A stretch of DNA of 64,000 nt from Somniosus microcephalus (Eukaryota): the NCBI GenBank assembly GCA_052327205.1, contig CM126204.1, positions 59,024,001 through 59,088,000 of the forward strand. The letters run 5' to 3'. This document shows positions 9,711 to 64,000 of the stretch, in pieces. The translations under genes were made by a program, and so were the position numbers. Within the stretch, counting starts at the first letter, position 1. Every line of letters begins with the position of its first letter. The notes below the pieces were generated by a model, which saw nothing but the letters and a program-made list of their open reading frames with translations, did no database searches and was not told where the DNA came from.

Positions 9711-12700
9711 TGATGCGCTATCAATTACTCATAAAAGACGGAGAGTTAGGAGAGTAACTAAAGGCTTTTATTAGCAAAGAACAGAGCATGTCCCTCGTGG
9801 TTGACTGGGTTCCAAGAAGGCAGGGGGCTGCAGGTCAATCACCTTTATACCTGGGCCTGTGGGTGGAGCCAGGGGCGGAGCCAGCAGAGACATGCTGAGG
9901 CATGCATAGGTACAACAGTGTGCAACAACAACAACAACAATAACAGTGGTTTACCACATTCACCCCTTGTTTAAAATTGAGTCCGGCGGGGTGAAGTGTA
10001 CTAAAGGTTCGTGTAAGTAAGTCTATCAGGTGGCCTTGTATGCCGTCCTGATCGTCGTGGTAGCGGCGGTGATGGTGCAGCATCCAACGTTGAATCAGGC
10101 GTCTCATTGAGTGGTTGGGTGGTCAATGACGGGTCCTGGGGCTGCGGCATGCCGTCTAGCGGGGTTGGGTTGAGGGTAGTGGTGGATGGCAATGGTAGTG
10201 TTTCAGGGACACCCGAAGGTGCGAGATCTCGTGTGGAGGCTGTGTCCTCCCGCCCGTCCGGGTACGCTACGTAAGCGTACTGGGGGTAGGCGTGGGTAGT
10301 GGTGGGTGGCGAAGGAGGTGTTTCAGGGGCACCCGAAGGTGCGAGGTCTCGTATGGAGACTGTGTCCTCCCGCCCGTCCGGGTACACCACGTAAGCATAC
10401 TGAGGGTTGGCATGGAGGAGGCTCACCCTCTCGACCAGGGGGTCCGTCTTATGGGACCTCACGTGCTTCCGCAGTAGGACGGGTCCTGGAGAAGTCAGCC
10501 ATGTCGGTAACGAGATCCCCGATGTGGACTTCCTGGGGAAGGAGAACATTCTCTCATGAGGGGTGGCATTGGTGGCTGTACAGAGCAGTGACCGAATGGA
10601 ATGGAGCGCCGCAGGGAGGACCTCCTGCCAGTGAGAGGTCGGAAGGCCCTTAGATTTCAAGTTTAAAAGGACTGCTTTCCAGACCGTCGCATTCTCCCTT
10701 TCCACCTGGCCATTCCCCCGGGGGTTGTAGCTGGTGGTCCTGCTTGTAGCAATACTTCTCGCGAGCAGGTACTGACGAAGTTCGTCGCTCATAAAGGATG
10801 AGCCCCTGTCGCTATGAATATAGCTAGGGAAACCGAACAAGGCGAAGAGGTCATTCAGACATTTAATGACCGTGGTGCTGGTCATGTCTGAGCAAGGGAT
10901 GGCAAACGGGAAACGGGAGTACTCATCAATTATGTTGCGGAAGTACACATTGCGGTCAGAGGAGGGGAGGGGCCCTTTAAAATCGACGCTCAGCCGTTCA
11001 AAGGGGCGCGTGGCTTTGATCAGGCTTGCTCTGTCTGGCCTATAAAAATGCGGTTTGCACTCGGCACAGATTTGGCAGTTCCTGGTCATGGTCCTGACCT
11101 CCTCGATGGAGTAGGGCAGGTTACGGGATTTGATGAAGTGAAAAAACCTGGTGACCCCCGGGTGGCAGAGGTCATTGTGGAGGGTCTTCAGTCTATCAAC
11201 CTGCGCGTTGGCGCATGTACCACGTGATAGGGCATCTGGGGGCTCATTGAGTTTCCCGGGCCGGTACAAGATATCGTAATTGTAGGTGGAGAGTTCGATT
11301 CTCCACCTCAAGATCTTGTCATTCTTGATTTTGCCCCTCTGCTTATTATTAAACATAAAAGCTACTGAACGCTGGTCAGTGAGCAGGGTAAATCGTTTTC
11401 CGGCCAGGTAATGCCTCCAATGTCGCACAGCTTCCACAATGGCCTGGGCCTCCTTTTCGACAGAGGAGTGTCGAATCTCGGGGCCCTGGAGGGTCCTTGA
11501 GAAAAAGGCCACGGGTCTCCCCGCCTGGTTAAGGGTTGCAGCTAGGGCAAAGTCGGATGCGTCGCTCTCCACTTGGAAAGTGATGGACTCATCCACTGCG
11601 TGCATCGTGGCCCTCGCAATATCTCTTTTTATGAGAGTGAAGGCTGCACAGGCCTCTGCTGCCAGGGGGAAGGAGGTGGACTTGATGAGGGGTCTGGCTT
11701 TGTCCGCATAGTTGGGCACCCACTGAGCATAGTACGAGAAAAACCCTAGGCATCTCTTCAGTGCTTTTTGGCAGTGGGGGAGGGGGAGCTCCATAAGGGG
11801 GCGCATCCTGTCGGTGTCGGGGCCGATGACTCCGTTCTCCACTACACAGCCAAGAATGGCAAGGCGCTTGGTACGAAACATACATTTGTCCTTGTTGTAT
11901 GTTAGGTTCAGCCGCTGGGCCTTATGGAGGAATTTCTCTAGATTAACATCATGGTCCTGCTGGTCGTGGCCGCAGATGGTGACGTTGTCTAGATAGGGGA
12001 AAGTGGCCTGGAGCGCGTTCTGGTCAACCATCCGGTCCATCTCCCGTTGGAAGACTGAAACCCCGTTGGTGACGCCGAAGGGAACCCTGAGGAAGTGGTA
12101 GAGACGACCGTCAGCTTCAAAAGCTGTGTACTGGCGATCCTCAGCCCTGATGGGGAGCTGGTGGTATGCCGACTTCAGATCAATCGTCGAGAACACCCGG
12201 TATTGTGCTATCTGATTGACCATGTCAGATATGCGGGGGAGTGGGTATGCATCTAGCTGGGTGTAGCGATTGATCGTCTGGCTGTAGTCAATAACTAGGC
12301 GCTGTTTTTCGCCAGTCTTCACTACCACCACTTGTGCTCGCCATGGGCTGGTGCTACTTTCAATAATCCCTTCTTTCAGGAGTCTCGCTACCTCGGATTT
12401 AATGAAGCTCCTATCCCCGGCACTGTAACGCCTGCTTTTGGTAGCGATGGGCTTACAGTCGCCGGTGAGGTTAGCGGACAAGGAGGGGGGGGGAGCTTTA
12501 AGGGTGGAGAGGCTGCAAATGGTGCGCGGCGGGCGATTTAAAAGCTGCTGGCTGCAGACTGTGAGTGGGGGGAGGGGTCTGTCGTACGCTAATGTGATAC
12601 TCTTAAGGTGGCACTGAAAATCCAACCCCAGTAGAACGGCAGCGCAAAGATGGGGCAGGACCAGGAGTTTAAAATTTTTGTATTCTGTGCCCCTTACTGA

Positions 12701-14192
12701 AAGTGTCACTACACAGTAGCCACCGACGTCCGCTGACTGGGCTTTGGAAGCCAAAGAGATCCGATGGCGCGTCGGCAGGACCGGCAGAGAGTAACTGCGC
12801 ACCGTGTCGGGGTGGATAAAGCTCTCTGTGCTCCCGTTGTCAAAAAGGCAGGTAGTGGCGCGGCCGTTTACCGTAATGTCCATCATGGACCTGGACAGTT
12901 GATGAGGGAGAGATTGGTCCAGCGTCACGGAGGCCAGCGTATGGTCGAGCGAGTCGATGTGGTCGTCAGATGAGGCGGTGGTTGAGTCCGGGTCCCCCGT
13001 GGTTGAAGTTGGGGACGTCCAAGATGGCGGACAAAATGGCGGCGCCCATGATCCCGATCCCCACGCGGCTGGGGGAGCCCAAGATGGTGGACAAGATGGC
13101 TGCCCCCACGGTTCACACGCGACGCTGCTGGCGTTAGCGGTTTTACCTTTGCAGGCGCTGACATAGTGTCCTTTCTTCCCGCAGCCGGAGCAGGTAGCGT
13201 TTCTCGCCGGGCAGCGTGCTCTGGGGTGTTTTGCCTGGCCACAAAAATAACATTTCTGTGCCTTGGACATCGCAGCAGCAGTTGAAGGTGGCGGTCCCAT
13301 GACCCAAGGTTGTGGCGTCCACGTTGCGGAGCGGTTAGGGGAGAAGGCGTCCATATTCCTGTGGGCCGCATCGAGCGAGAGGGACACTGCCTTTCTCAGG
13401 TCCATTTCTCCCTTTTCCAACAGTCTCTGCCGGGAGTAGTCGGACCTTAGACCCGCAACGAAAGCATCTCGGATCAGTCCCTCCGTGTGTGCTGCGGCTG
13501 ATACTTCTTTGCAATCGCAGCCTCGGCCGAGTATCCGTAGTGCCCGTAGGAAGGCCTCCACCGATTCCCCGGGCTGCTGTCTGTGGGATCTTAAGAGGTG
13601 CCTGGCATAGACCGTATTTACCGGGCGTGCGTATTGCCCTTTTAGCAGATCGATAGCCGCCGCGTAGGTCGTCGCGTCCTGGATTATTGTATAAACTTGG
13701 TGGCTCACCTTTGAGGCCAGGATTTCCAACTTGTTTTCGTCCAGGGTCACAGTTGAGGCTTGCAGGTAGGCCTCGAAGCAACGCAGCCAATGCGCAAATT
13801 TGGTAGCCGAACCCGCTTCTTGGGGGTCTAGATCCAGGCATGTTGGTCTGAGGGCTCGCAGCAGCTCCTGCTGCTCAGCGTTTGGTGCAGCAGCCTGCTG
13901 CTCAGCGTTTGTTGTCGACATTTTGTTTTTGCTAATAAAATTGATGCGCTATCAATTACTCATAAAAGACGGAGAGTTAGGAGAGTAACTAAAGGCTTTT
14001 ATTAGCAAAGAACAGAGCATGTCTCTCGTGGTTGACTGGGTTCCAAGAAGGCAGGGGGCTGCAGAGCGGTCACCTTTATACCTGGGCCTGTGGGTGGAGC
14101 CAGGGGCGGAGCCAGCAGAGACATGCTGAGGCATGTATAGGTACAACAGTGTGCAACAACAACAACAACAACAATAACAGTGGTTTACCACA
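9711..14192 (-). mobile_element. Gypsy/Ty3 LTR retrotransposon A, full length
   Basis: LTRs 13942-14192 (5') and 9711-9958 (3'), TG...CA on minus strand; TSD gctgc at 9706-9710 and 14193-14197; PPT 9959-9968; single gag-pol ORF. Confidence 0.97.
10001..13921 (-). CDS. Gag-Pol polyprotein, 1306 aa (2x CCHC, protease, RT, RNase H, integrase)
   Basis: CYFCGQAKH..C, CSGCGKKGH...C, LFDNGS, SPWRAQVVVV, YLDN, ESDASD, HHCC, VDFKG/HSDRG/QVER. Confidence 0.93.
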   Translation of the reverse strand: MSTTNAEQQAAAPNAEQQELLRALRPTCLDLDPQEAGSATKFAHWLRCFEAYLQASTVTLDENKLEILASKVSHQVYTIIQDATTYAAAIDLLKGQYARPVNTVYARHLLRSHRQQPGESVEAFLRALRILGRGCDCKEVSAAAHTEGLIRDAFVAGLRSDYSRQRLLEKGEMDLRKAVSLSLDAAHRNMDAFSPNRSATWTPQPWVMGPPPSTAAAMSKAQKCYFCGQAKHPRARCPARNATCSGCGKKGHYVSACKGKTANASSVACEPWGQPSCPPSWAPPAAWGSGSWAPPFCPPSWTSPTSTTGDPDSTTASSDDHIDSLDHTLASVTLDQSLPHQLSRSMMDITVNGRATTCLFDNGSTESFIHPDTVRSYSLPVLPTRHRISLASKAQSADVGGYCVVTLSVRGTEYKNFKLLVLPHLCAAVLLGLDFQCHLKSITLAYDRPLPPLTVCSQQLLNRPPRTICSLSTLKAPPPSLSANLTGDCKPIATKSRRYSAGDRSFIKSEVARLLKEGIIESSTSPWRAQVVVVKTGEKQRLVIDYSQTINRYTQLDAYPLPRISDMVNQIAQYRVFSTIDLKSAYHQLPIRAEDRQYTAFEADGRLYHFLRVPFGVTNGVSVFQREMDRMVDQNALQATFPYLDNVTICGHDQQDHDVNLEKFLHKAQRLNLTYNKDKCMFRTKRLAILGCVVENGVIGPDTDRMRPLMELPLPHCQKALKRCLGFFSYYAQWVPNYADKARPLIKSTSFPLAAEACAAFTLIKRDIARATMHAVDESITFQVESDASDFALAATLNQAGRPVAFFSRTLQGPEIRHSSVEKEAQAIVEAVRHWRHYLAGKRFTLLTDQRSVAFMFNNKQRGKIKNDKILRWRIELSTYNYDILYRPGKLNEPPDALSRGTCANAQVDRLKTLHNDLCHPGVTRFFHFIKSRNLPYSIEEVRTMTRNCQICAECKPHFYRPDRASLIKATRPFERLSVDFKGPLPSSDRNVYFRNIIDEYSRFPFAIPCSDMTSTTVIKCLNDLFALFGFPSYIHSDRGSSFMSDELRQYLLARSIATSRTTSYNPRGNGQVERENATVWKAVLLNLKSKGLPTSHWQEVLPAALHSIRSLLCTATNATPHERMFSFPRKSTSGISLPTWLTSPGPVLLRKHVRSHKTDPLVERVSLLHANPQYAYVVYPDGREDTVSIRDLAPSGAPETPPSPPTTTHAYPQYAYVAYPDGREDTASTRDLAPSGVPETLPLPSTTTLNPTPLDGMPQPQDPSLTTQPLNETPDSTLDAAPSPPLPRRSGRHTRPPDRLTYTNL

Positions 14193-36317: not shown

Positions 36318-36707
36318 GTCTGTAGTGTCACGACAGAAGCTGGGGGTTCCCTGTACCATGGGTTTCAGGATACCCTCGACATATCCAGAGAGGTTCTCAC
36401 ACAGGATTCATCAGCCGCACTCAAATGACAGTCCAGAATGTCACCCGAGCACAACGCAACGCCATCCACGCTCTCAAGACCAACCGCAACATCGTCATCA
36501 AACCAGCAGACAAAGGAGGAGTCATCGTCATACAGAACAGAACGGACTATTCCAAAGAAGCATACTGACAACTGGACAACCAGGAACACTACAGAGTTAC
36601 CCGCAGATCCGACCAAAGAACACACCCGCCAACTCAACAGACTGATCAAGACCTTCGATCCAGACCTTTAAAGCATCCTACGCACTCTCATCCCACGTAC
36701 TCCCCGC

Positions 36708-38309: not shown

Positions 38310-38647
38310 CGTAGGGTCATCCAGACTCGAGTCGTCGTGGGCTTGTTCTCTCTACACAGATGTGGCCGGACCTGCTGTGATTTCCAGCAAAAAAAAATGT
38401 TTTTTTGTCTGTTTTTTGTTTTTCATACAGACCCCAGCATCTGCAACATTTGACCCCTTGTGACCCCACCTCATTGTTCTTTGATGTAATGTTTTCCTGA
38501 CTGACCTGTTTGGACACCATTCACACCTTTGATTGCTGTGATTATCTCTCTGCCGAGGTGTGATAAATGGCAGTTAGAAAGATTACCTGTAATCATCTGG
38601 CATTATTCTTTGACTATATAAGCTGTGTCTTTATGCATCTCTCCACT

Positions 38648-38684
38648 TCACCTGACGAAGGAGCAGCGCTCCGAAAGCTTGTGA
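38648..38684 (+). ncRNA. Minimal type I hammerhead ribozyme
   Basis: tcac-CTGACGA-a-GGAGC-agc-GCTCC-GAAA-GC-TT-gtga. Confidence 0.8.
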
Positions 38685-42800: not shown

Positions 42801-44817
42801 GATGCGTCACCTTACGGCATTGGAGCGGTGCTGTCACACAAATTCCGTGACAGTTCAGAGAGGCCAATAGCCTTTGCATCGCGCTCGCTAACCTCAGCCG
42901 AGCGTAACTACACCCAGGTTGACAGGGAGGCCCTCAGCCTGGTGTGGGGGGTGAAGAAGTTCAATCACTATCTGCACGGGCAGAAATTCACCCTACTGAC
43001 TGATCATCAACCCCTGGTCTCAATTTTTAACCCAAAGAAGGGCGTTCCGGTGATGACGGCGCAACGGCTGCAAAGATGGTCACTTTTTCTAGGGGCACAT
43101 CAGTATGACATAGAGTACAAAGGTACGAAACAACATGGAAACGCTGATGGGCTGTCGCGCCTACCGTTACCTACGGCGGAAGAAGCACCGCTGTGTGGAC
43201 CCTGTGGAGATATTCCATGCGACCATAGTCGAATGTTTGCCTGTTACAAACGCAAGTATTGAGAAGGAAACCCGAAATGACCCGACACTCGCTCGGGTCT
43301 ATGATTTGACGGTGAAGGGATGGCCAGCATATGGCGACTCACTGTTGCCAGCATTCTCGCCAAGGAGGGAACAGCTGTCAGTGTGCCGGGGAACCTTGAT
43401 GTGTGGATCCCGAGTGGTAATTCCACCCAAGTTGAGAGATAGAGTACTCAATGAGCTTCACGAGGGTCATCTGGGAGGGGTAAAACTGAAGAGCCTAGCC
43501 AGGGCGTTTGTGTGGTGGCCGGGAATCGATAAAGAAATCGAGGATATGACCAAGAGATGCACAGGATGCCAGAAGGTCTAAAATGCTCCACCACAGGCCC
43601 CGCTACATCCATGGGAGTGGCCCTCATCTCCATGGCAACGGGTACACATTGATTTCGCTGGTCCATTTATGGACTCAATTTGCTTTGGACGCCCATTCGA
43701 AATGGCCAGAGGTCATTAAAATGTCCTCCACCACCACGGAGAAAACTATTGCAGTCCTAAGAACCATTTTCACCAGGAATGGGTTGCCAGAACAGATCTG
43801 TTCCGACAATGGCCCACAGTTTGCGTCTGAGGATTTCCGGAGGTTCCTGAAGAATAATGGGGTGAAACATTACACATCTGCCCCATATCATCCAGCCACA
43901 AATGGATTGGCTGAGAGGTTTGTTCAGACCTTTAAAAAGGCCATAAAGGCAATGTATAATGACGATATACCACTGCAATACAAGGTGGATAACTTCCTGT
44001 TTGCTTACCGGAATGCAACACATGCAATAACCAACCAAACTCCAGCCGTACTGTTTTTTAACCGGAGACTAAGGTGTCGCTTGGATTTGCTCAAACCAAA
44101 CATAAGACAAGATGTTGAGGATAAGCAGTTCCAGCACATAAATGAGAAGCCAACCAGGAGCTTCAAGATAGGGCAACCAGTCTTGGCCCGCGACTACCGA
44201 ACAGAAAAATGGCAGCCAGGCACAATATGCACACAGCTGGGACCACTAATGTACACAGTGGATGTTGGAGAGAGCATCATGAGACGCTATGCTGACCAGA
44301 TTCTAGAGTCACAGGAACAAGCCAAACCTGTACCACAAGCATGTGCACCTGGTAATGAGCCCGAAGTACAGATTGCGTCTACCTCAGAAGCAGGGGTATT
44401 GGAAGCTGACGAACCAACCAATGACAATGAGCCAGAATGACTCCAGCGCCAGAACAGGATACTCGAGAAAGGCACTATCCAGTCCAGATCAGGAAGCCTC
44501 CTCAAAGACTGAACTTATAAATGACTATTTCAGTTGATATATATATTACTGAGAAAATTGTAATTCTAATTGTAATTAGTTATTATTTAGTTGTTAAATG
44601 AATGTTATGTACTGTTTATCTAAAATGGGAGGAATTGTTGTGTATGTACCTTTAAGGGAATAACTGGTCTTAGACTGCAGTACCGGCAGTGACCACCCCT
44701 GTATAAAAGGCCCTAGCAGGCTTCTGTAGTTTCAGTTTCAAGCTGCCTCTTGTTCAGTAAAGTACCTGTTAAACTGTTCTCCCGAAGTCCGTGTATTATT
44801 GAGGCGCGGACTTTACA
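39829..44817 (+). mobile_element. Gypsy LTR retrotransposon B3 (Mag-like), defective
   Basis: 182-bp LTRs 39829-40010 and 44636-44817 (about 3 differences); TSD ggctg; PBS tggcgacgag at 40012. Confidence 0.96.
40576..44520 (+). pseudogene. gag-pol of B3 with stops and frameshifts
   Basis: ORF pieces 40486-41337, 41373-42269, 42300-43262, 43135-43581, 43583-44440, homologous to B2. Confidence 0.92.
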
Positions 44818-46859
44818 GGCTGCATTGGAGGGGAACGTCCTGCTGCTGAACCATCTGGAAAGGGCACTGAGACGCTGGGAGAGGGGGGCGGGCATGGCCA
44901 GACGGAGGAGGGCCAGCAGACGTCGCCACAGCAGACCTTACGCTGGCAGGGTTTTCCGACAGCAGTTTTCCTGCATGAACATGCCGGAGGAGCAGTGTGT
45001 CAGAAGGCTGCGATTTAGAAAGGAGGTGGTGACTGAGCTGTGCCAGCTGCTTCAGCCAGATCTGCAGCCTCAGATAAGGTGCAGGACATCTGTCGGTGGC
45101 TGAGAAGATGCCTGCTGGCCTGAACTTCTACGTGAGCGGCTCTTCTCAGGCTGCGCGTCAGAGGCTGATCAGAAGTAGCTTTTAGGCCCCTCTCACAGAA
45201 TGCTTGCTGCCATTCCAAGACCAGGAATGGAACCGGTCTGATACCCCCAAGCCTGTGAAGGGCAAGATGCATGTAAATAGCAGGCATGGCCATTGTAAAT
45301 GAAGAAAGTGTTTCATTACACAAAACGTCGTTCCTTCAAACATGAGAAAGCTATGGCAACAGAAAGCAAAACGAATACACTGACACATAACTGACTCTCA
45401 CACCCGGGAGACTATCCAAAGCATAAATCACATTCCGACCATCTTCCTTGGCCTTGATTCCACTGCGCCAACCAAAGCATCCAATGCCCCATCAGTGAGG
45501 CATTCTGCCCTCTGCCTCACCCTTTCCATGTCTTGCTAGGCTGGTGCGCCACAGGTAGGCTCCCACCGCTTTGAAGGCCTACAAGGCAGTGAGTGTGTCT
45601 GGTGATGCCAATTGACCTGCCCCTTTAAGAGCTGGCCGGCGCCAGTGTGTCTCAGGGAAAGTGATTATTGACAGCACCCTCGCTGTGCCCCGCCGCCGCG
45701 AAATTGGGTTGCGCCGCCGGGTTAGCGCCTTAAGAGTAGCGTGCAGCGCCTGATTTAGCGCCGCAATCACCTTTAGGGGCGCTGAAACCCAATATCGCAC
45801 TGGTGGCACTAAATTGCGCCTGGCGCTAAACTTTGCGCATTGCCAGGACTAGCGCCCCAAACGCGGCTATACCGAATTTCTCAGCCACAAGCTTTCGGAG
45901 CACTGCTCCTTCATCAGGTGAAGTGAAGAGTTGCATATAAGCACAGCATATATAGTCAGAGAGTACACCTGGCAGTACTCTCTGACTATATATGCTGTGC
46001 TTATATGCAACTCTTCACTTCACCTGACGAAGGAGCAGCACTCCAAAAGCTTGTGATTTCAAATAAAGCTGTTGGACTATAACCTGGTGTTGTGTGACTT
46101 CTTACATTTGTCCACCCCAGTCCAACACCGGCATCTCCACATCAAATTTCTTACAAGCAGCTGAGAAATGGTCCATGATGACTTGGAGGTCAGCAGCAGA
46201 CAAGAGCTCTTGAACAAGTTCTTCAGAGGTCTTAGTTGTGGACTGCAGGTGGTAGAGATTGTATAATTGGCCCTCTGTCCTGAAGCGAAAGCTTGCTAGA
46301 TTGGTGTCAATGGCTGAGAGTGAAGTGACGGCAGAGTACAGGATAGGTGATTTCTCACTGTCTGTGTTTCCTGGTATTTGGTAGTTATGCATATGCCATT
46401 GTATCAATATTTGGGTGCAAAATATATTGAAAGGTTCTAGGTACCACAAATTGGCAGATTAACATCTGAAATATTGATATTGGTGAAATTTCCTGATGGA
46501 GGAGGCCGTCACTATAAGGTGACAGTGGAGATTGTGGATCATTGATATATTGTGAGATATGATGTTGAATATCTCATGAAAATTGTTCTGAAAAGCATTA
46601 TATCTGGGAAACACCAGTCAGATCAGCCCAGAGTGCAAAAGGCTCGGCAAGGAACTGGGTAGTCTGGCTAACACTCGGGCAAGGCACCCAGAATTGCATA
46701 AGATGGAGACGTGTACAGATAATCATGAATGGAACCCATATGCTGCCTACATAAAAGGAAAAAGAATCTGCCTATCATCCATTGTGTCTGTTTAATTTAT
46801 GTTATAAGATGGTGTGTCCACAGGAACAGTGTTTTTAACAGTGATTTATTTGTACTACT

Positions 46860-47977: not shown

Positions 47978-49864
47978 AATACTAAATGCTGAACTAACGT
48001 TAAATATGTGGAAACATTAAAGAAAACTCTGAAAATATTGAATACAAATCAAAATGATTCATTCACAATCCACTTTCCGCATCCCCAATGCTACTTAATG
48101 TTAAAACTATTTTTCTTTACGCAAGAAAAATTGATGTTCCATTATGACCAACCTGCTTCGAAAGTATTTCCATCTTTCAACAAGTAATTCATACAATTTA
48201 TCTTTTTGACATCACCGCCGACTGCCAACACCAAAACAACAGGAGTGTCTCAAATCCAGCCTAGGCGTTGGGCCCATTTTCCTTCACAGCCCGTCCAATA
48301 TCTGACAGGCCAGGGGTCATACAAAACTGACAACATGACAACTATCACAGCATACAAATCCTAGTTCATTCAAGGGTGATCTGTGGCATACAATGTGGTT
48401 TCATAAGTTTGTCACTTTTGTAAACACTTAACCAGACGTTAAACCTCTTTTTTAAACCATAAAATCAATTGCCATTTGTATAACCAAGCTACTACACCAT
48501 TGGTAGTTGTAGTGTATGTACCCGTCTACCTTTAAGGGAACTATTGAATGTAACCGTTCACCTTTAAGGGAACTACTTTAGGTGTGGCACTATTTGTTTG
48601 GCTTCTGTATACTGTAATACCGATAGTGACCACACCAGTATATAAGTGTTGTAGCAGGATTTCTGGGGCAGATTCGCCCTGACCTCTGAATAGTAAAGAC
48701 CTGTTTGTTTGTACTTCAAAAGTCTGTGTATTTATTTACTGCACAACCCACAGACTTTACAGTGGCGACGAGTCCGATCGTACCCTGCGGCAAGATTACC
48801 AAAGCAAGAAGAGCGTCGAAGAGAGGCAACCGCCCTCGTCGTGCTGCTGGAAGAAAACACGAGGCTGCAGCAGGAGTAGGGTGTAAGACTTTAGCAACAA
48901 AAGCTTCCATTAGCAACAGGCACTGACTACCCTTCTACCACGGTGCGGAGTGAGCCGATCAGCAGGGAACAAGGCGGCCGAAGAGACTGTGAGTAGGGGA
49001 AGGTGTAGAGAACATCCGGAGGATAAGGGCAGAGCACTCGACCTCGGTCGAGGGGGAGCTGTGCCGGCCAAAAGTCGGGTCCAACGGCATCGGGTGACAG
49101 CCGGACCGCGATCGGCGGGAAAAATCCGAGCAGCGACCGCAGCCACAAAGCGCTGAGCCTGCGAGTAGGCGCGGGAAGAGAAACCCAGCCGCAGCCGGGG
49201 AGGGAGACACCGGTCTGCGAGAGGGCTGGGGAGGCGAACGGGAACCGTGCGGGTGAGAGCCGGGTGCGGAGAGAGAGACTGCGAGGAGCCAGTCCAGCGG
49301 CTGAGCTGTTCTCCACCAACGGGGTACTCAGAACCGGCAAAACCGAACGTGCGGGAGTGGGTGAGAGACACAGCCGAAAACGGGGTGAGAGACTGCTCGA
49401 GAGCCAGTCCAGCGGCTGAGCTGTTCTCCACCAACGGGGTACCCAGGGCCGGTAGCACCGAACGTGCGGGTGAGAGAGCGACAGAGCCGGGTACGGAGAG
49501 AGAGACTGCGCGAGAGCCAGTCCAGCGGCTGAACTGTCCTCCGTTAACGGGGTGTACCCAGCGCCGGTAGAGCCGTGTGGGCGGGAGGAAAAGACATAGC
49601 CGAGTAAGGGGAGCTGTGCGGAAGCCAGCCAGCGGCTGAACCTGTCCGCTGTGGGGGAAGCGTACCCCTTCCACCGGGAAGAAACGCGGGAAGCCGCCAT
49701 TAGACGGAGAAGACGCCAGAAGCGGGAAACCGCCATTGAAGTGGGCGGGGCGAGAAAGGAAGAGCGGGAAACCGCCATTTTCGCGGGAAAACCGCCATCT
49801 TAGAAACAAACAAATAAATAAGAATACTTAAAGAAATACTGGTGCTGCTCCCAAGGGAAGAAAA

Positions 49865-52800
49865 ATGCCTAAGCGAGGGAATATTAACGACTTTAATTCT
49901 GAAATAGAAGACTGGGCCACGTACGTGGAACGCATCGAGATCTATTGTGAAGCCAACAAAATAGAGGAAGACGACAAGGCGATAACATTGTTAAACTCGA
50001 TGGGCGCAAAGACATACGGGCTCTTGAAGGATTTACTAGCACCAGCTAAACCGGCGGATCAGTCTTTCGAAGAGATTGTGGTTTTCCTGAAGGACCACTT
50101 GAACCCCACACCGTTGATGTTGGCTGAACGATTCAAATTCTATGCAAGAACGCAACGGAAAGACGAAAACAACGCAGAATACTTGGTCGAACTGCATAGG
50201 CTAGCGAAATACTGCCAGTTCGGAGGGAATCTGACAGAGGCACTGCGAGACAAGTTCGTAGGCGGATTGTCCAAGGAAGGGACGCAAAAGCGCCTACTAG
50301 AAGAGAACGACCTTACACTTGACAGGGCTGTCCTTATAGCCGCATCACACGAAGCCGCAGCGAAAGGAACGGCGGAAATGCAACTAAAGGCGGCGGCGCT
50401 CGGGGTGGACCAAATTACCTCGAGTACAACAAAATGCTATCGTTGTGGGAAGACAACACACAACCAGAATCAATGCTGGTTTAAGAACCAAGAATGTAGG
50501 AAATGTGGCAAACTGGATCACATCGCTAAGGTATGCCGGTCAGGGAAGAAGACCAACAACCAAAGGAAGCCATCACAAGAAAAGGACAACAAGGTATACA
50601 AGGGGGCTGAGAAGAGTTCAGACGAACAGAATCCAGACTCAGATCCAAACGGCCAGGAGCTGGGTAGTCTGAGTATCCACCATGTGAGTAAGGAAGCTGA
50701 CCTACAAACTATCTGGGTCATGCTAAAAATAGCTGGAGTCCAAGTGAAAATGGAGTTGGACACTGGATCAGCTGTATCAGTCATAAATCGAGGGGATTAC
50801 CACCGGCTATTCTCACACATACCCTTAAGAGATACCGGGCTGAAAATTCAGTAGGGTTAGCGCCCCATTTGAGGCGCTAGAGGGCCTTGCGCCGGAGTTA
50901 TGGCCGGTTTGTAAATTCAGTGGGGCCCTGCCATCGGCGTTAGACCGGTTGCGCTGCGCCGGCACCGATGACGTCATCGGTGTGCGCAGCGTCCCGGTTG
51001 CCGTGGTGACGGGCCCCAACGCCGAAATTGAGTTGCGGCCGCCTCGCCCGTGGCAGCCGCAACTAACGATGTTTCAGCAGAGTCCTACGCGAGTTAGCGC
51101 CGGCGCATTAAGGTCGCGCGGCGGCCGGCCGCTTTCCCACCGGCCGCCTGCCCGCACCTCCCTCCCCGGACTCCTCCACCCCCCCGCCGCGGAACAGATG
51201 CGTCTGGCCTGCGAGCCCGGCACTTCTCCGAGGTGCCGGGCTCATTTTTTTCAAGATTTCAACGGCCAGCGGGCGGGTGCAGGCAGCTCCTCCTTAACTG
51301 AAGGAGGAGGCCTGCACTTCCCCAGCCTGCCGCACCGCATCGGGTGCCGCAGCGCCGGAATTGCGCCGCAATGCGGCAGTCAGCGCCCATTTCGAGGCGC
51401 TGACACCCTCCTGTAGCGCCGGCAGCCGTTTGGGCGCGGCGCTACTGAATTTTTGGTGCGCGCAGGGGGACTTAGCGCCGGCGCTAAATTTCCGGCGCTA
51501 AAGCCCTGGCGCGGCGCCAACTGAATTTCTAGGCCACCAAGTTCGTATTGCAGACATACACGGGGCATAAAGTATACCCCATGGGAAAAATAAGAGTCAA
51601 GGTGAGAGATAGGGGTAAAGAACACCCAAGAATGAACTTGTATGTACTACATGAGGGAGGACCACCACTTCTAGGATGGGAGTGGATCAAGAAAATAGAC
51701 ATGGAATGGCACTACCAACAAGCAATGACGAGTGAGGACTCGGTGCAGACAAGCAGCTCAGACTCTGAGCCAGAAGACGATAAGTCCAGCCCACGTATGA
51801 AAAACAAGGTTAACATGAACTCACTGACTAAGGTTGGAAAAACGATGGCGTGCATAAAGACAGAGAATTCTGAGTCTGTTCAAGTCACAGACATATGCAT
51901 TACGGAGGAACACCGAGCTCGAACTCAACGTTATTTCAAAGTACGACAACAATTCGAACAATTAAGTTACCGTCTCGTACAGGAGATGAAAACAATGAAA
52001 AAGTTCTATGACACCGAATGGGAGAGTCTGGAAAGACAACAGAACCTGCTGGCTCAAGCAGAGAGCGACCATAGAGCCATCGTGACCAATTACCGATCAC
52101 ACCTCCCTTATGATGTTCAGGAGTTAGAATATTTGCATGATCTAGAGATACAGCATAAAGGCAAACCACGCTACACTGAGGATTTTGTTCTGCAATTAGA
52201 GACGGAGCTAGTGCAGGCAAGGTTAAGAGAAGCTGAATCGCAGTGTGCACTTAAAGAGATGCAGAAAAAAATCTTGGACATGGAAAAGAGAAACGCTTCT
52301 TTACCTGATGTGAATAATGTGGCCATGTTGCAAGAGGAGCTTATCACTCAGTTAAATGAAAATAAAGGGAAAATGACTGAGATAGACTGCAAGAATAAAG
52401 AAGATTTGATGGCAGTGAGACTTCAAGAGGCAGATAGCATAGCAGCCTTGGCTGAACTCCAACAGGAAATTGCGAAAGAAGCAAATGAAGAGGAATCTTC
52501 AGGAAGCCGGGATTTTATTCCAGTTCTTCTCTACGACTCCTTACAAGCAGAGTGTGAGAAGTGGAAAGAACAGTATGAACAGGCCCAGGCTACAATTCTG
52601 GAGGGGATTAACTCGGCAACCTCCGAAAAGCTAGTTTCAGTAGAAGCATATGAACAACTAAAGGTTGAACATGAGCAAGAAGTCCAAAGGCTGCAGGAAA
52701 TTCTTGATGAGCTCAAGGCCAAGACAGACTCATCGGTAGAAGTTCCATCCATAGGTGAGAATTTAGCGGTGAAAGACATGGCAGAACATGAAAGACAAGA

Positions 52801-53737
52801 TGTCCAAGAACTCATAAAAATATTGGAGGAAACCCAAGACAAATATGAGGCGGCAATGACCGAGGTTCAACAACTTGAAGAACAGATTCAACTGGGAATC
52901 CTTTCAGTGGAAGAACAGGACACTGTAAGAACGGTCCCTAAACATGAACTAGAGAGCATCAGGGCGCAACTTTTCCGAGCGCTGAAAGCCAAAGTTCAAG
53001 AGGAACGTAAGGTGGAAGTATTGGAGAAAGAGGTGGAGGAAATGGAGAAGACTCTGATCCACCGTGTTCCCAGGGAAGAGTTAACGGTCAGCCAACTCCT
53101 TCATATGCTGAAGGACAAGACTCTGCAAGGGGAACAATCTGAACACGAGCTTCAATCTTCAGGGGGAACGAGTTCGGAGCTCTCAAAGGTCACGGAGATA
53201 GCTGAGGTGGCAACACAAATTTTACAAGGATGCCAAAAGTACGTTGAATCACGTCAAGGTGAACAGAAGAATGTGGAAACCGTTACTTCAGTAGAAGGAT
53301 TAAATAGCCTGATACCGCAATCCCCGGTGGAAGGGAAGGTATTGAACTCACAAATGAGGTCAGTAGTGAAGGAATGGCAGACAACCCAGGAAGAGTGGGA
53401 TGAATATGAATGCATGAAGAAGTCTTTTCAAGAAAGATGTCTAGGGAAGGAACCACCGTCAGCTAACGTCCAGACGGGTGAGGAGGAAGAAGAAGGCTCT
53501 CTCGCTGGCCTAACTCAGGACGAACCCGAATATTACCATGACCTGTTGAGTGACACTGAATATTGCGAGGATGTGGCCTGCCCAGCTTGTGATGAAAACT
53601 CCCAAAGTGCTGAAATCCGGAGGAAGCACTTAAGGTCTAAGGAACATAGAGAGTTGGTGGCGCTACAGCTGGCAGCCGAGAAAGGAGCTCCGAGAGTTTC
53701 AAAAAGGCAGAAAAGAAAAAGAAGAAGCAGAAGATAA
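49865..53737 (+). CDS. Gag-protease-coiled-coil mosaic fusion (1056 aa after removing the MITE)
   Basis: ORFs 49865-50854 and 51548-53737 are in one frame; excising 50837-51538 gives HIPLRDTKFVLQTYTG, colinear with B1 HIPLRDTEIVLKTYMG. Confidence 0.85.
50837..51535. mobile_element. PIF/Harbinger MITE, 699 bp, inserted in the protease of D
   Basis: TIRs gggctgaaaattcagt...actgaatttctaggcc; TSD acc at 50834-50836 and 51536-51538; dense agcgcc motifs. Confidence 0.9.
51947..52042 (+). other. STK10: Captured STK10/SLK-like coiled-coil fragment
   Basis: QQFEQLSYRLVQEMKTMKKFYDTEWESLERQQ resembles recalled STK10 [31 protein letters not shown]. Confidence 0.65.
52169..52474 (+). other. EVI5: Captured EVI5-like coiled-coil fragment (internally deleted)
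   Basis: EDFVLQLETELVQARLREAESQCALKEMQ...LQEEL and TQL...EIDCKNKEDLMAVRLQEADSIAALAEL resemble two separate recalled EVI5 segments. Confidence 0.85.
52478..53080 (+). other. ANKRD24: Captured ANKRD24-like (RAI14/UACA family) coiled-coil fragment
   Basis: IPVLLYDSLQAE resembles recalled ANKRD24 IPLALYDSLRAE; a family C-terminal motif HRAIVTNYRSHL.Y.VQ also occurs at 52037-52120. Confidence 0.6.
53480..53665 (+). other. DNAJC21: Captured DNAJC21-like C2H2 zinc-finger fragment
   Basis: CPACDENSQSAEIRRKHLRSKEHRELVAL resembles recalled DNAJC21 [29 protein letters not shown]. Confidence 0.65.
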
Positions 53738-54208
53738 TAACTGTCTAAAATATTAGCACTTCTACCATCTCAGGCGGAACACTACGAAAGGAGCTAAATT
53801 AGTTGAAAAACTGGAAAATGTCAAGACAGCCAGTTGGTTGTAAAAGTCCGCACTGCTGGTTCAACAGGACGAAAGTTCAAGCTGCTACGTCAAGAAAAAG
53901 GCTATGGAGGAGTCACGCTAGCCAGGTGAACCGGCTACCCCAAAGAAATGTTGTTCGGAACGAGTCAAGATCAGAGACTGAATCTATGAACTGTTTCCGC
54001 AGAGACGGAACCTGTGAACTGTTTCCACCGAGATTATATTTGTAAATTGTTTTATATGACATTGACTCCACCGAGATTATAGCTGTAATTTGTTTTATAG
54101 GAAGTTGAAGATATGTATGTTTAACGGGGACTCTGTAAGTAATAAGCTAAAAAGGGAGGATTGTAGTGTATGTACCCGTCTACCTTTAAGGGAACTATTG
54201 AATGTAAC

Positions 54209-54294
54209 GATAGCAAAATACTGCAGATGTTGGAAATCCGAAATAACAACATGTTGCCTGACTTGCTGAGTTTTTCCAGCATTTTCTGTTGTTA
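54209..54294. mobile_element. 86-bp inverted Penelope-terminus insertion in the 3' LTR of D
   Basis: 13-bp TSD tattgaatgtaac at 54196-54208 and 54295-54307; sequence matches both termini of 2318-3310; absent from the 5' LTR. Confidence 0.88.
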
Positions 54295-54824
54295 TATTGA
54301 ATGTAACCGTTTACCTTTAAGGGAACTACTTTAGGTGTGGCACTATTTGTTTGGCTTCTGTATACTGTAATACCGATAGTGACCACACCAGCATATAAAT
54401 GTTGTAGCAGGATTTCTGGGGCAGATTCGCCCTGACCTCTGAATAGTAAAGACCTGTTTGTTTGTACTTCAAAAGTCTGTGTATTTATTTACTGCACAAC
54501 CCACAGACTTTACAGTAGTGTCATGCAATTACTTTTTCCTTGAAATAGAAAAGAATTGATGTAACATTTAAAACAACTTGTGGATCCGACTGATTGTGAC
54601 AAATTTGTGAATTTGTTCCTCATTTTATGTCATTGGATCTACGTAATGTTTGGAAAATGTGTTGCACCAGTAATGGCATCCTTTTTTCTCTTTATGCTTC
54701 CAGAGAAAGGCTCCAGTTAAACAAAAATTCTGTACCTGCAAGTGAATCCTTTTCTGTGGAAAAAGTCTGAAATATAAAAAGTTGATCCCACATCTTTCTG
54801 CATGACATGCACTGATGTTTGTCA

Positions 54825-58196: not shown

Positions 58197-58980
58197 TCTA
58201 TATATATAAAACAGTATGTCTCTCTGTCTGTCTGTCTGTCTGTCTCTCTGTCTGTCTGTCTGTCCGCTATACAGTCAAAAATTATAGAGCATACCTACAC
58301 ATATGTTATATCAAAAGAAAGCTCATCATTAGGGGACTCTTGTAGGTGTATTTACTTATTGGTCGGACAAAAATTATGCCGACAGTATCCAAAAAACTTT
58401 CAAAATTCCGCTCATTATCCGCTCATTTGCATCGAGTGGGGGCGGGTTCATTGTGTGTGCAGGCGGGCCATCCTACAGTTGAGTGATGTGATGATTGACC
58501 AATCCTACAGTTCAGCGACCTGACGGTTGACCAATCGGTGCGTGTGTGGGCGGGCCTTATCATTCTGAAATGAGGTGAGTGGCCGCCATCTTGATTCCAA
58601 ACTCTTCGCTACTTTTCCCCACTTTCTGCGTGTTTCTTTTCAAATCTACATTTCCAGCAAAAAAAAAGTTGCTTTTAAAACACAAATTGTTTTTTAAAAA
58701 AGTTAATTAATTTGTAAATCTTTTCTCTAACCTCTATAATTTTCCTACCTTTCACTGTTTTTCCAGGCCTCAAAGCCTGGGCCTCTGTTGCCCAGCCACG
58801 CCCGAGCTAGGCACCTCCCGTCGCGATCAACAAAAGGCCCGCGATCGCCGCCATCTTTGTGAAGGCTGGAGGGGGCGGGCCTGAGCCGAGCGTCGCCATC
58901 TTAGTAAAGGCGGGCGGGGCAGGAGTCAGCACGCACGCCAACTTCCGCCCGGAGCGCGACTTGAGTCCGGCAGGGCCTCA
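58197..58980 (+). mobile_element. Putative non-autonomous Helitron-like element, 5' part
   Basis: Starts A|TCtatatatataaa followed by (GTCT)n, as in several non-autonomous Helitrons; no CTRR 3' end found. Confidence 0.4.
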
Positions 58981-59603
58981 CGAAACAGGATTAATAAAAA
59001 ATGTCGTAGTAAAGGATCCCCTTGGAATGAGTGACCATAATATGGTTGAATTCCAAATTCAGTTTGAGGGTGAGAGAGTTGGATCTCAAACCAGCGTACT
59101 GAGCTTAAATAAAGGAGACTATGAAGGTATGAGAGCAGAATTGACTAAAGTGGACTGGGAAAACAGATTAAAGTGTAAGACGGTACAAGAGCAGTGGTCC
59201 ACATTCAAGGAGATATTTCACATCTTTCAAGGTAAATATATTCCACTGAGGAAAAAGGGGAGTAAAAGAAAAGACAGCCATCCGTGGCTTAGTAAAGTAA
59301 TAAAGGATAGTATCCGACTGAAAACAAGGGCATATAAAGTAGCCAAATCTAGTGGGAGGATAGAAGATTGGGAAGCATTTAAAAGCCAGCAAACAATAAC
59401 TAAAAGATTAATTAAGAAAGGGAAGATAGATTATGAAAGTAAACTAGCAAAAAATATAAAAACAGATAGCAAGAGTTTCTACAGCTATATAAAAAGAAAA
59501 AGGGTGGCTAAAGTGAACGTTGGTCCCTTAGAGGATGGGACCGGGAAACTAGTGGTGGGGAACATGGAGATGGCAAAGACGCTGAACAAATATTTTGTAT
59601 CAG
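58981..59603 (+). mobile_element. CR1 ORF2 internal fragment (APE-RT linker) cut by Gypsy E
   Basis: PLGMSDHNMVEF...PWL...KTDSKSFYSYIKRKR...LNKYFVSV. Confidence 0.9.
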
Positions 59604-62600
59604 TGTGGTGATTATTCCTTGTTTAGTAAAAGTATTGTGATTGGTTGTTTGTTAACTGCCTTGGGATATATGTTGTAATCTCATTGGTAGTTGATGTCAC
59701 ATGATGTGTGGTGGCCACCTTAAATTCAGTTCTTTTCCAGCTTTGGTTGGGACTAGATGTGCTGCAGATTTTAAAGTTAATAAAGCCTAGTTTTGGAAGG
59801 CAAACCTATTCTTTATTTCAATTTATTAACTTTATGTTAGAATGGAGCGATATCTTCAACCAGAACGATTCAAGGCTGACCCCAATTCTGCTGGAGTGGA
59901 TGATAAATGGAAACATTGGTATTGTACATTTAAAAACTTTTTGGGCGTGTTGGATCAAGAGCCTCTAAATAAGCTGAATATGCTGATCAACTACATTGCT
60001 CCGGATGTATATAAATATATTTTGGACTGTAAAACTTATGAAGTGGCTATTTCTACATTGGAAAAGATTTTAGTTAAACCAAAGAATGAGGTATTTGCAC
60101 GTCACCTTCTATCTGCCCATAGGCAGCAGGTGGGAGAATCATTGGATACTTATTTACAAGCACTTCGGTGCCTTAGTGTTAACTGTAATTATAAGGCCGT
60201 GACGGCTGAAGAATATAAGGAAGAATCGGTACGGGATGCTTTTATTAATGGATTACTGTCTAGATCAATTTGTCAGCGGTTGTTAGAAAATAAGACTTTG
60301 GATCTTAAAAGTGCTTTTGAGCAAGCTTCTACATTGGATGTGGCTCAGAGAAGTTCAGATTCTTATGCTCTTTTTAATCGGCCTGCGACTATGGTTTCGG
60401 CAGTTTCGGATGAAAAGGAATTATGTGGACTTAATGGGAGTGGTTTACTAGATTCTGAAACAGTTTCTACTTCGGCGGCTGTTGCCTCTAGGATTCAGAA
60501 GTGTTATTTTTGTGGGAATATCCGGCACCCTCGTCTGAAGTGTCCTGCTCGGGAGGCTGTGTGTAGTAAATGCGGCAAGAGAGGTCATTATGCACGCGTG
60601 TGCAAATCATCAGGTTCAATTACCTCCTCCTCTCCTGGTGTGGGAGGGCCCTCCTCTACCACCTCCTCCTCTGTGACTATTCAGCCTTTAGATAGGGCGT
60701 TTATTGCATCAATTTCTGCTGCATTTGCTCATGGCCTAAACAAAGCTATAGTTACGGCTCAAGTTAATGGGTTGGAAGTGAAGGCCCTTATAGATATGGG
60801 CAGTACTGAGAGTTTTATAAGTCTTCAGTTTGCGAAGGAGAAGTATTTGAAAATTTCACCTGTTACGTATCAGGTGTGTATGGCTCAGACGACCCTTACT
60901 TCACAAATAGCTGGTTGTTGCTTTGTGAAAATGATTCTTCTAGGTAATACGTATACTGATATACGCCTATCTGTTTTGCCTAATCTCTGTGCGGCTATTT
61001 TGATTGGTCATGATGTGCTTCAGTTACACGAGTCTCTTAGTCTTTCATTTGGAGGGACTAAGCCACCTTTATCTATTTGTGGATTAACCTCTTTATCCAT
61101 TTCTCCATTATCACTTTTTTTCAATTTGATGCCGGATTGTAAGCCAATTGCTACCAAGTCAAGAAGATATAGTAGTCAGGATAGAGAATTTATTAATTCT
61201 GAAGTTCAACGTCTCTTATTGGAAGGAATCATTGAACCTAGTTGTTCGCCTTGGCGAGCACAGGTAGTTGTCACGACTAACGAGAGACACAAGAAACGAA
61301 TGGTGATAGACTATTCCCAAACTATTAATAGGTATACTCAATTAGATGCGTACCCTTTGCCTAAGATTGATGAGCTTATCAATAAAGTATCTCCGTATAA
61401 GGTTTTTAGCACTATTGACCTAAAGAGTGCTTATCATCAGATTCCTATTGTTAAGAAGGATCAACCATATACGGCCTTTGAGGCTGGTGGAAGGCTGTAT
61501 CAGTTTTGCCGAATACCATTTGGTGTTACTAATGGTGTTGCTTGTTTTCAATGGGCAATGGATGCTTTTATAAGTGATAACTCCCTCTCTGACACCTTTT
61601 CATACTTAGATGACATCACAGTGTGTGGCAAATCAAGGGTGGAGCATGATTCTAATTTAAAAAGATTCCTTCAAGCTGCGGAAAAAGTTGGTTTAACTTT
61701 TAATAAAGAGAAATGTATCTTTTTGACTACTGAGGTAAATCTATTGGGGTATATTATCTCGGGAAACAAGATTAAACCAGATCCAGAACGTCTGCGACCA
61801 TTGATTGATTTACCTTGTCCTACTAATTCTAAGGCTTTGCAACGAGTTGTTGGACTGTTTTCTTATTATTCTAATTGGATTGCAAATTTTTCACGGAAGA
61901 TCCGGCCTCTTATTCAGGTTACGACATATCCTCTATCATGGGAGGCCAGGACATGTTTTGAGAATTTTAAAAAGGATATTTTAGGAGCAGTTGTGCATTC
62001 TATTGATGAGCAGGTTCCTTTTGTGATCGAGACGGATGCTTCTGATTTTGCAATTGGGGCTACTCTGAACCAAAATGGAAGACCTGTGGCCTTTTTCTCA
62101 CGTACTTTGAACAATAGTGAAAAAAGACATTCTTCAATAGAGAAAGAGGCATACGCAATAGTAGAAGCATTGCGTAAATGGAGACATTATTTATCGGGGC
62201 GACATTTCACGTTAGTAACTGATCAAAAATCTGTGCCCTTTATGTTTGATGTTAAACATTTTGGAAAGATCAAAAATGATAAAATAATGAGATGGAGGAT
62301 TGAGTTGGCATGTTACCATTTTGACATAGTTTATCGTCCAGGGAAGGATAATGTTGCTGCTGATGCACTGTCGAGGGCTTATTGTTCTGTGATTCACGGA
62401 GATACGCTTATTAATCTTCACAATGCCTTATGTCATCCTGGGGTTACGAGGATGATACACTTTGTACGCAGTAAGAATTTGCCCTTTTCAGTTGAAGACG
62501 TCAAGCGGATGACTTCATCATGTTCTATCTGCGCTCGGTGTAAACCGAATTTCTTTAAGCCTCAACGAGCTCATCTTATAAAGGCTACTTCTCCTTTTGA

Positions 62601-64000
62601 ACGTTTGAGCGTCGATTTTAAGGGGCCTCTTCCTTCAACTAATCAAAACTGATATATTTTTACTGTTGTGGATGAGTTTTCAGGGTTCCCTTTTGCTTTT
62701 CCTTGTGCAGATGTATCAGCTGCTACAGTTATCAAATGTCTGACTCAACTTTTTGTCATCTTTGGGATGCCTGCGTATATCCATTCGGATCAGGGAAGTT
62801 CTTTTATGTCTTCCCAGTTGAAGGAATACCTTCAGAGTCGGGGAATTTCTACTAGTAGAACTACCCCGTATAATCCCCAGGGTAATGGACAGTGCGAACG
62901 ATACAATGGGGTGATCTGGAAGGCAGTTATGTTGGCTTTGACATCCCGGAACCTTAAGAATACACAGTGGGAAATGGTACTGCCTGATGCCCTGCATTCC
63001 ATTAGATCATTGCTTTCAACGGCTACTAATGTGACCCCCCATGAAAGGCTCTTTAACTATCCACGGAGATCTACTACGGGATATTCAGTACCTTCATGGC
63101 TTACTATGCAGGGACCTGTGCTGCTTCGACGCCATGTTAGATTGTCAAAATATGATCCTTTAGTGGAGGAGGTGGAGCTGTTGGAGGCAAATTCCCAATA
63201 TGTTCATATTCGATTCCAAGATGGGAAAGGAAGTACTGTTTCAATTAAAGACTTGGCTCCTTGTGGTGGCCAGCCCTCTTCTGAGGATATTAACAATAGT
63301 CATGATTTAGATAATGTGGATGCTGTTACAGATACTACGAATGTCTCCAATCCGATTGCAGATAATTATACTTCTATTAGTCAGCCCTTGATGGATGTTT
63401 ATGACCGTCCCAGTTTACCTTCTGATGGGATTTCTAATCCGGAAACCGTTGAAAATCGGGATATGGATAGCCTTCTTGCTGAAGATACTTCTGTGCCTTC
63501 TGGTGTGGGAGGGCAAGGAATTTCACCAAGGTTAAGAAGGTCGACACGAACAAGATATCCGGTCGACCGATTGAAAATGGACTTTTAAATTGATAGTAAT
63601 GTTTTAAAATTGTTGTAATATTATATTATATTGTTTTAGTTGAGAGATACTTAATACTTATGTGCAATGTTATTATTTGTTGTTGTTCACTTAGTATTGT
63701 GTCATGTAAACAGTTTTACTCTTGTTGTGCATAGTTTTAGTTGTAAATAATTAATTATAAATTGTAAAGGTTATTTAGGTTGGAGTATATTTTAAAAGGA
63801 GGGGTGAATGTGGTGATTATTCCTTGTTTAGTAAAAGTATTGTGATTGGTTGTTTGTTAACTGCCTTGGGATATATGTTGTAATCTCATTGGTAGTTGAT
63901 GTCACATGATGTGTGGTGGCCACCTTAAATTCAGTTCTTTTCCAGCTTTGGTTGGGACTGGATGTGGAAAGATGTGCTGCAGATTTTAAAGTTAATAAAG
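59604..64000 (+). mobile_element. Gypsy LTR retrotransposon E (same clade as A); 3' LTR runs off the window
   Basis: 5' LTR 59604 to about 59820; 3' LTR from 63809; PPT aaaaggaggggtgaa 63794-63808. Confidence 0.95.
59842..63588 (+). pseudogene. gag-pol of E with a single in-frame stop (62650-62652)
   Basis: ORFs 59842-62652 and 62668-63588 share a frame; SPWRAQVVV, YLDD, ETDASD, VDFKG/HSDQG/QCER. Confidence 0.93.

Follow-up and report, generated by a model that had tools for sequence, protein, structure and literature searches.

A conserved pairing between the LTR and the primer-binding position in a clade of animal Gypsy retrotransposons and its putative role in self-priming

How does an LTR retrotransposon prime reverse transcription when the position of its primer-binding site (PBS) holds the complement of a segment of its own LTR and no tRNA signature? 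This question is raised by element E, which lies in the 64,000-nucleotide stretch of DNA analysed here (the window), a repeat-rich region with at least six LTR elements. E belongs to Ty3/Gypsy: paired LTRs, a polypurine tract and the order gag-PR-RT-RNase H-IN are all present, and the best match among solved structures is Ty3 Gag-Pol (E-value 2.4e-110).

The paired arms of elements E and A

The features of element E are as follows.

59599..59603, + strand: candidate 5-bp TSD ATCAG, left copy; the right copy would lie beyond the window
59604..59820, + strand: 5' LTR, 217 nt, TG start; right end ...TTTCA, inferred
59772..59784, + strand: arm 1, putative self-primer within the LTR, TAAAGTTAATAAA
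59822..59834, + strand: arm 2, sequence at the PBS position, TTTATTAACTTTA, 1 nt past the inferred LTR end
59842..62652, + strand: ORF with gag (two CCHC knuckles), protease, RT, RNase H and integrase zinc finger
62653..63588, + strand: remaining integrase in the same frame past the stop, without chromodomain
63794..63808, + strand: polypurine tract ending GGGGTGAA, adjoining the 3' LTR; similar in A, L001, L002 and L008
63809..64000, + strand: 3' LTR, cut short where the window ends, at the counterpart of 59785

The two LTRs are identical at 182 of 182 aligned bases and differ besides by one 10-nt indel, so the insertion of E is young. This sole difference, a 10-nt segment at 63957-63966 that is absent at 59751-59752 of the 5' copy, is flanked by short GATGTG repeats and sits about 20 nt upstream of arm 1. 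The right end of the 5' LTR was inferred from the CA-N-TTT junction, which is the same in element A and in a relative described below, L008, both of which have LTR ends fixed by 5-bp TSDs. The gag-pol frame of the window copy contains an in-frame stop at 62650-62652, and a second copy of arm 1 is found in the 3' LTR (63987-63999). The final base of arm 2 is also the first base of an out-of-frame upstream ATG (59834-59971), placed 8 nt before that of gag. E is inserted in an open frame at 58811-59603 that has no Pfam match; we take the end of this frame to resemble the ORF2 of a CR1/L2-type LINE, and the right flank of E should resume the interrupted LINE.

A preliminary description of this locus had reported that 59822-59834 is the perfect reverse complement of 59772-59784 and that it follows the terminal TTTCA after one nucleotide, with an ATG 21 nt behind the LTR end. 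Indeed, the two segments are exact reverse complements (13/13 Watson-Crick pairs) with mismatches directly on both flanks; TTTCA ends at 59820, one spacer base precedes arm 2, and the ATG stands at 59842. The final six bases of arm 1 are the sole AATAAA of the E LTR (59779-59784), and GCCT comes next. Arm 2 has no TGG tRNA signature, and its 1-nt spacing equals that of the TGG-type PBS of the window elements B, C, D and F.

Could such a match arise by chance in AT-rich DNA, or be an ordinary hairpin within the LTR? The arms are indeed AT-rich, the LTR end of E is inferred, and the fold of the whole E leader is unremarkable, being no better than that of shuffles (z -0.69, against -4.34 in A); the E duplex is AU-rich, at -9.7 kcal/mol. 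When the 30 nt past the LTR were compared with dinucleotide-shuffled LTRs, however, a match of at least 13 nt appeared only once in 5000 shuffles for E and never in 5000 for A. Among 2120 sliding positions in the window, four reached 13, namely E, A and two long hairpins (at ~2850 and ~45990). Long near-perfect hairpins of short repeat elements lie at 45886-46055 (81-nt arms, 8 nt apart) and 2602-2906 (67-nt arms). The window also contains a large inverted duplication of a LINE-like RT at 33084-38711, with arms of 1350 nt (96%) and 469 nt (99%) and an inner 90-nt inverted pair, possibly a fold-back rearrangement.

Element A lies on the opposite strand of the window and has the following features.

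9711..9958, - strand: 3' LTR, bordered by a 5-bp TSD and not by arm 2
10001..13921, - strand: gag-pol, one uninterrupted ORF of 1306 aa
13928..13940, - strand: arm 2, 1 nt past the LTR end; missing after the 3' LTR
13942..14192, - strand: 5' LTR, 251 nt, with TATAAA 71 nt upstream of arm 1
13997..14009, - strand: arm 1, ending AATAAAA, then GCCT

The polyproteins of A and E share 49% amino acid identity, so the two elements are diverged members of one clade, and their arms are copies that have drifted apart and did not originate independently. The closest named homologs of A come from the sharks and rays Hypanus, Mobula, Scyliorhinus and Narcine (76-82% over 251 aa), which makes a cartilaginous fish the likely host. 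Further copies of the E or A LTR were not found within the window. The earlier characterization of the E arms as an independent covarying copy was therefore right in part: the pairing is conserved and covaries at the PBS position in 5/5 assessable clade members, but a separate origin in A and E is ruled out by the 49% polyprotein identity, the single RT clade and the LTR cores. These cores, TAATA(A)AAGCCT and TCAAT(T)TTATTA, lie around the arms and are common to both LTRs, which otherwise give no overall alignment (best blastn E-value 2.2), so that the reported lack of visible alignment needs this qualification. Similarly, the spacer and the 13-bp length match between A and E as described, but the register does not: arm 1 of A runs one A past the hexamer (AATAAAA) and is thus one base off that of E, and the distance from the end of arm 1 to the LTR end is 36 nt in E versus 55 nt in A. 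Between LTR end and gag ATG there are 21 nt in E and 20 in A. With the hexamers aligned, both strands differ between A and E at 4/6 of the pairs beyond the hexamer.

Relatives with the stem and tRNA-type controls

Homologs of the gag protein formed 395 clusters at E-values up to 1e-30 (50% library), with corals, anemones, Hydra and crustaceans among the named hosts. A scan of prokaryotic genome contigs for relatives yielded 14 loci (L001-L014), which we infer to be animal DNA mis-binned into genome assemblies. The contigs are filed as bacterial, yet the LTR elements in them are of eukaryotic type and in some cases have tandem repeats and TSDs, which indicates contamination by host DNA. Three of the 14 (L001, L002 and L008) contain the gag start with upstream DNA; L003-L006, L009, L010 and L012 are without the 5' junction and were not scored, L007, L011 and L014 served as controls, and the PBS of L013 was not scored. 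The features of the three informative loci are:

L001, 372-385/437-450: 14-bp stem; LTR start at 237
L002, 3275-3287/3338-3350: 13-bp stem
L008, 4923-4936/4976-4989: 14-bp stem
L008, 4780-4974 and 8689-8883: LTRs, both bounded by the TSD ATGAT, with arm 2 after the 5' LTR only

L001 and L002 are collapsed circular contigs whose LTR ends were inferred from CA. The stem was present in 3/3 of these relatives, and thus in all five assessable elements (E, A, L001, L002 and L008), with lengths of 13, 13, 14, 13 and 14 bp and sharp ends. All 67 pairs of the five stems are Watson-Crick pairs and none of the internal ones is G-U, a purity that mainly reflects the long perfect run, since the stems were found by a perfect-match search. 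Arm 2 begins 1 nt after CA in 5/5, and 20-28 nt separate the LTR from the ATG. The 3' end of arm 1 reads AATAAA, AATAAAA or ATTAAA, with GCCT next in 4/5. Beyond the hexamer, two or three types of Watson-Crick pair occur in every one of the six columns, with 30/30 cells paired; in this region arm 1 pairs at 6/6 positions with its own arm 2 and at 1-5 of 6 (mean 2.3) with the arm 2 of other elements. The hexamer variant of L001 covaries as well (ATTAAA:TTTAAT). In predicted folding of the five elements, the mean pair probability of the stem was 0.94-0.98.

The 3' LTRs of A and L008 end at the TSD without arm 2, and arm 2 therefore lies outside the LTR; a 90% identical 3' LTR in L006 is followed by unrelated DNA, again without arm 2. 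The possibility raised in the preliminary description, that the 3' LTR extends over the second arm, is contradicted at the level of the clade by these three junctions. For the clade, a chance match or a hairpin internal to the LTR conflicts with the recurrence of the stem and with the TSD-bounded 3' LTRs, and we give this explanation hardly any weight. At the level of sequence, the stem of E is a real, conserved, clade-wide feature.

The RTs of the five elements are 57-63% identical to that of E and are spread over the clade in an RT tree (42 rows, FastTree, midpoint root) that has weak deep support and in which the A/E clade stands apart from B/C/D and from L007/L011/L013/L014; F, L005, L006, L009, L010 and L012 gave no RT hit and are outside the tree. 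The stem is probably ancestral to most of the clade, which is large and has hosts as diverse as cnidarians, crustaceans, sharks and rays. The RT motif Y(L/V/I)DN is found instead of YxDD in 132/180 motif hits in homologs; A has YLDN and E has YLDD.

We also scanned the window and the 14 loci on both strands for CA-N followed by a sequence with an upstream complement of at least 11 nt. The 26,231 CA sites gave 16 hits. Five are the known elements, one mirrors the L002 stem, and the other ten are unrelated and have no hexamer complement, so no further stem-bearing clade member was found in this material. Two clade 3' LTRs carry ATTAAAA at the arm-1 position (L003:5852-5861 and L004:7172-7185) and are missing their 5' junctions; their arm 2 is predicted to start with TTTTAAT. 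Weaker support for the stem in the clade came from predicted N-terminal extensions of homologous proteins. Of 15 such extensions, two were too short and were dropped; among the 13 tested, two were codon-compatible with a hexamer-anchored stem (P0156, 15 bp, 0/1000 shuffles; P0091, 13 bp, 2/1000), one was marginal (11 bp, 9/1000), and a stem of at least 12 bp was absent in 11/13. P0156 passed only after the search window had been widened from 45 to 60 nt, which raised its stem from 7 to 15 bp.

The related Gypsy elements of the window served as comparison for a conventional PBS.

17010-22143, 23829-30047, 39829-44817 and 48542-54516, + strand: elements B, C, D and F, PBS TGGCGACG

In these four elements, TGGCGACG, presumably a PBS of the tRNA-Ser type, lies 1 nt past the LTR and has no LTR complement of 6 nt or more. 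L007, L011 and L014 have TGGTGGCAGC and an LTR complement of at most 5-7 nt, the boundaries of L007 being imprecise. Thus, the stem was present in 0/7 of the TGG-type controls (B, C, D, F, L007, L011 and L014), and no complement exceeded 7 nt. Arm 2 occupies the exact position of the PBS in the tRNA-type elements. B, C and D carry AGTAAA in place of AATAAA, the leaders of B, C, D and F contain tandem GC-rich repeats of 41-42 nt, and L007, L011 and L014 have the integrase upstream of the RT (Gmr1-like order).

An occupant of the PBS position without a tRNA signature might bind another host small RNA, either a non-tRNA or a tRNA fragment, the match to the LTR being incidental; non-canonical primers such as half-tRNAs are known, according to the available text of PMC6317226 and PMC10886601. 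Arm 2, however, varies between elements, even between A and E, which share a genome, and follows the LTR of its own element (6/6 versus a mean of 2.3/6), and the window gave no Rfam match at the gathering threshold. We regard a host small RNA as a very improbable partner.

Probable self-priming and competing roles for the helix

The position of the stem, its orientation (the 3' end of arm 1 faces the LTR end, as a primer requires), the missing tRNA signature (TGG at the PBS position in 0/5 stem-bearing elements) and the element-specific complementarity most likely point to self-priming. In Tf1, the first 11 nt of the transcript anneal to the PBS, and RNase H cleaves the RNA after base 11, as stated in the accessible parts of PMC7175516 and PMC4600332. 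By analogy, the elements of this clade probably prime on their own RNA in a Tf1-like manner, without a tRNA primer-binding site. The operational criterion of Neumann et al., as given in the available text of PMC6317226, is an LTR complement of at least 10 nt that starts 0-5 nt after the LTR; all five elements have 13-14 nt starting after a 1-nt spacer.

The proposed cycle would run as follows. In the 5' leader of the transcript, arm 1 is predicted to pair with arm 2, and the RNA would be cut directly after the hexamer, probably through the RNase H of the element, as inferred from Tf1; E has an RNase H domain, and primer-releasing cleavage by it is proposed by analogy. The cut would leave a 3'-OH on AAUAAA(A), which the RT could extend into U5, and the strong-stop DNA would be transferred via a short R stretch beginning at GCCT. 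During plus-strand synthesis the primer would be recopied into the PBS, and the arms would stay exactly complementary while drifting; PBS DNA does occur at the 3' end of Tf1 cDNA, according to the available text of PMC11042837. Fixed length, sharp ends and the absence of internal G-U pairs are what one would expect of a primer recopied into the PBS at every cycle. If arm 1 is copied in this way, concerted change of the two arms would be mechanical and in part not selected. The differences between A and E on both strands had been put down to compensatory change; the differences themselves hold, and that term may overstate selection.

Where transcription starts bears on this proposal. TATA-like words lie upstream of arm 1 in A (TATAAA, 71 nt) and E (TTAAAT, 52-62 nt), suggesting a start before arm 1 in these two elements; the region upstream of arm 1 gave no such word in L001, L002 and L008. 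If transcription began some 30 nt past the TATA, as is typical of vertebrates, the RNA would carry a 5' extension of 20-40 nt, unlike in Tf1. With the hexamer in U3 and a start after it, arm 2 might still be a self-PBS, its primer then being the arm 1 of the 3' LTR on the same RNA or on a dimer partner. Arm 1 is indeed present in both LTRs, and some retroviruses have the hexamer in U3, as the accessible part of PMC12789967 states. A cut after the hexamer, however, would deprive that RNA of the 3' R on which strand transfer depends, the TATA-like words 52-71 nt upstream of arm 1 favour an earlier start, and we found no precedent; we therefore think priming from the 3' copy improbable.

The main rival to self-priming is a helix whose sole role is to occlude the 5' poly(A) signal, in line with a proposal made for the polyA hairpin of HIV-1, with priming achieved otherwise. 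Within arm 1 only the hexamer is invariant, and all its bases are paired in 5/5 elements, including the ATTAAA variant; judging from where the TATA lies in A, transcription may begin upstream of arm 1. In retroviruses whose R contains the signal, the 5' copy has to be silenced, which HIV-1 achieves by a stem-loop, according to the available text of PMC12789967. Occlusion alone, however, needs neither an arm 2 at 1 nt from the LTR, nor a fixed 13-14 bp, nor the absence of G-U pairs, and the helix sits at the PBS position, where a TGG-type PBS is found in 0/5. Since occlusion is moreover compatible with self-priming as a second role, we consider occlusion without priming unlikely, though less so than the other alternatives. 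Under the self-priming proposal, the 5' poly(A) signal would at the same time be masked by the helix and the 3' signal would stay accessible, because arm 2 exists only at the 5' end.

Beyond the stem, the leaders showed little common structure. The pretzel, a leader of three duplexes that is required in Tf1 according to the accessible part of bioRxiv 10.1101/2022.12.06.519325, was unsupported in 5/5 elements: for the duplex between the LTR loop and the post-PBS region, 58-184 of 200 shuffles did as well. Outward extension of the stem was no better than in shuffles (23-88 of 200), and an inner U5 stem stood out in A (1/200) and L002 (2/200), not in E (46/200).

More tentatively, and with rather less confidence than in self-priming itself, we propose that this non-chromoviral Gypsy clade represents a separate origin of self-priming, in which the poly(A) signal itself would be the primer: a single helix of 13-14 bp would silence the 5' site and, once cut at the end of AAUAAA, prime reverse transcription, a coupling that may not have been described before.

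Relation to known elements

In the literature available to us, in which subscription papers and repeat-library reports are thinly covered, we found no description of the pairing in the E clade or of a self-primer ending in the hexamer; nor is the pairing described in the accessible parts of PMC12440569, PMC10886601, PMC6934838, PMC3587641 and PMC5006619. Prior notice of it may exist, for example in the original description of Cigr-1. Demonstrated so far in Tf1, self-priming has been inferred for the chromoviral relatives of Tf1 and for a single Copia lineage of plants. If the proposal is true, this would be a second animal Gypsy lineage with it, and tRNA-free priming would have arisen, or been kept, more widely than recognised. 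It would account for the missing recognisable PBS in the E clade, would presumably place the clade beyond the reach of tRNA-fragment silencing aimed at the PBS, and would let one helix solve two problems of the LTR, namely priming and suppression of the 5' poly(A) signal. The tie between the primer 3' end and the poly(A) hexamer predicts an exact cut site. For annotation, CA-N-TTT(A/T)AT together with a 13-14-nt LTR complement marks the 5' LTR boundary of the clade.

The closest parallel in working is the Tf1/sushi group (Tf1, Tf2, Tj1, Tosmo, sushi-ichi and the plant Tcn1), whose members, as far as the available reports go, likewise lack a tRNA PBS and carry a complement of the LTR behind it in primer orientation. 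The complement reported in those sources is 11 nt long in Tf1, against 13-14 nt in the E clade, and the available Tf1/sushi literature makes no mention of a primer ending in the poly(A) hexamer, as the putative primer of the E clade does. The Tf1 primer consists of the first nucleotides of the transcript, whereas arm 1 as the RNA 5' end is only putative in the E clade. Unlike Tf1/sushi, the E clade has no chromodomain, has a two-knuckle Gag and gives no support for a pretzel. Chromodomains had no Pfam match at E-values up to 0.1 in the C-termini of E and A or in four full homologs, and none was among the precomputed domains of the listed homologs. We therefore did not file the clade with Tf1/sushi, and its Tf1-like working is proposed by analogy. 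It is by its domains and leader, and not by RT placement, that the clade is set apart from the Tf1/sushi group.

Self-priming has likewise been predicted from an LTR-PBS complement for the TAR lineage of plant Ty1/copia elements, and for the plant Tcn1, by Neumann et al. (PMC6317226, available text). TAR belongs to the Copia superfamily and to plants, whereas the E clade is Gypsy, with the integrase after RT-RNase H, and occurs in animals. As far as the accessible account of TAR goes, self-priming can thus occur outside Tf1/sushi.

In its build, the E clade combines a single ORF of about 1200 aa, a two-knuckle Gag and the absence of a chromodomain. Two CCHC knuckles in Gag are a trait of the Mag lineage, and they are found in E, in A and in 112/125 homologs over 1100 aa. 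Cigr-1, which has a Gag of the Mag type, LTRs of ~245 bp and only one ORF, ~1200 codons long, resembles the clade in this build. The Cigr-1 clade (Ciona, molluscs) is listed under the Mag lineage in the accessible part of the Thomas-Bulle 2018 supplement (PMC6238403).

Identity with the CsRN1 clade was considered as well. Its LTRs start with the motif TGTGGYG (PMC3601003, available text), which the E LTR start TGTGGTG fits and the starts of the other four elements do not, and a CsRN1-like element has a tRNA-Trp PBS. We rejected this assignment, as a tRNA PBS is found in 0/5 of the stem-bearing elements and the start motif in E only.

The polyA hairpin of HIV-1 lies within R-U5. Like the putative helix of the E clade, it holds AAUAAA base-paired in the 5' leader, as described in the available text of PMC12789967. 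The HIV-1 hairpin, however, is separate from the tRNA PBS, whereas in the E clade the partner strand of the hexamer is the PBS position itself, outside the LTR.
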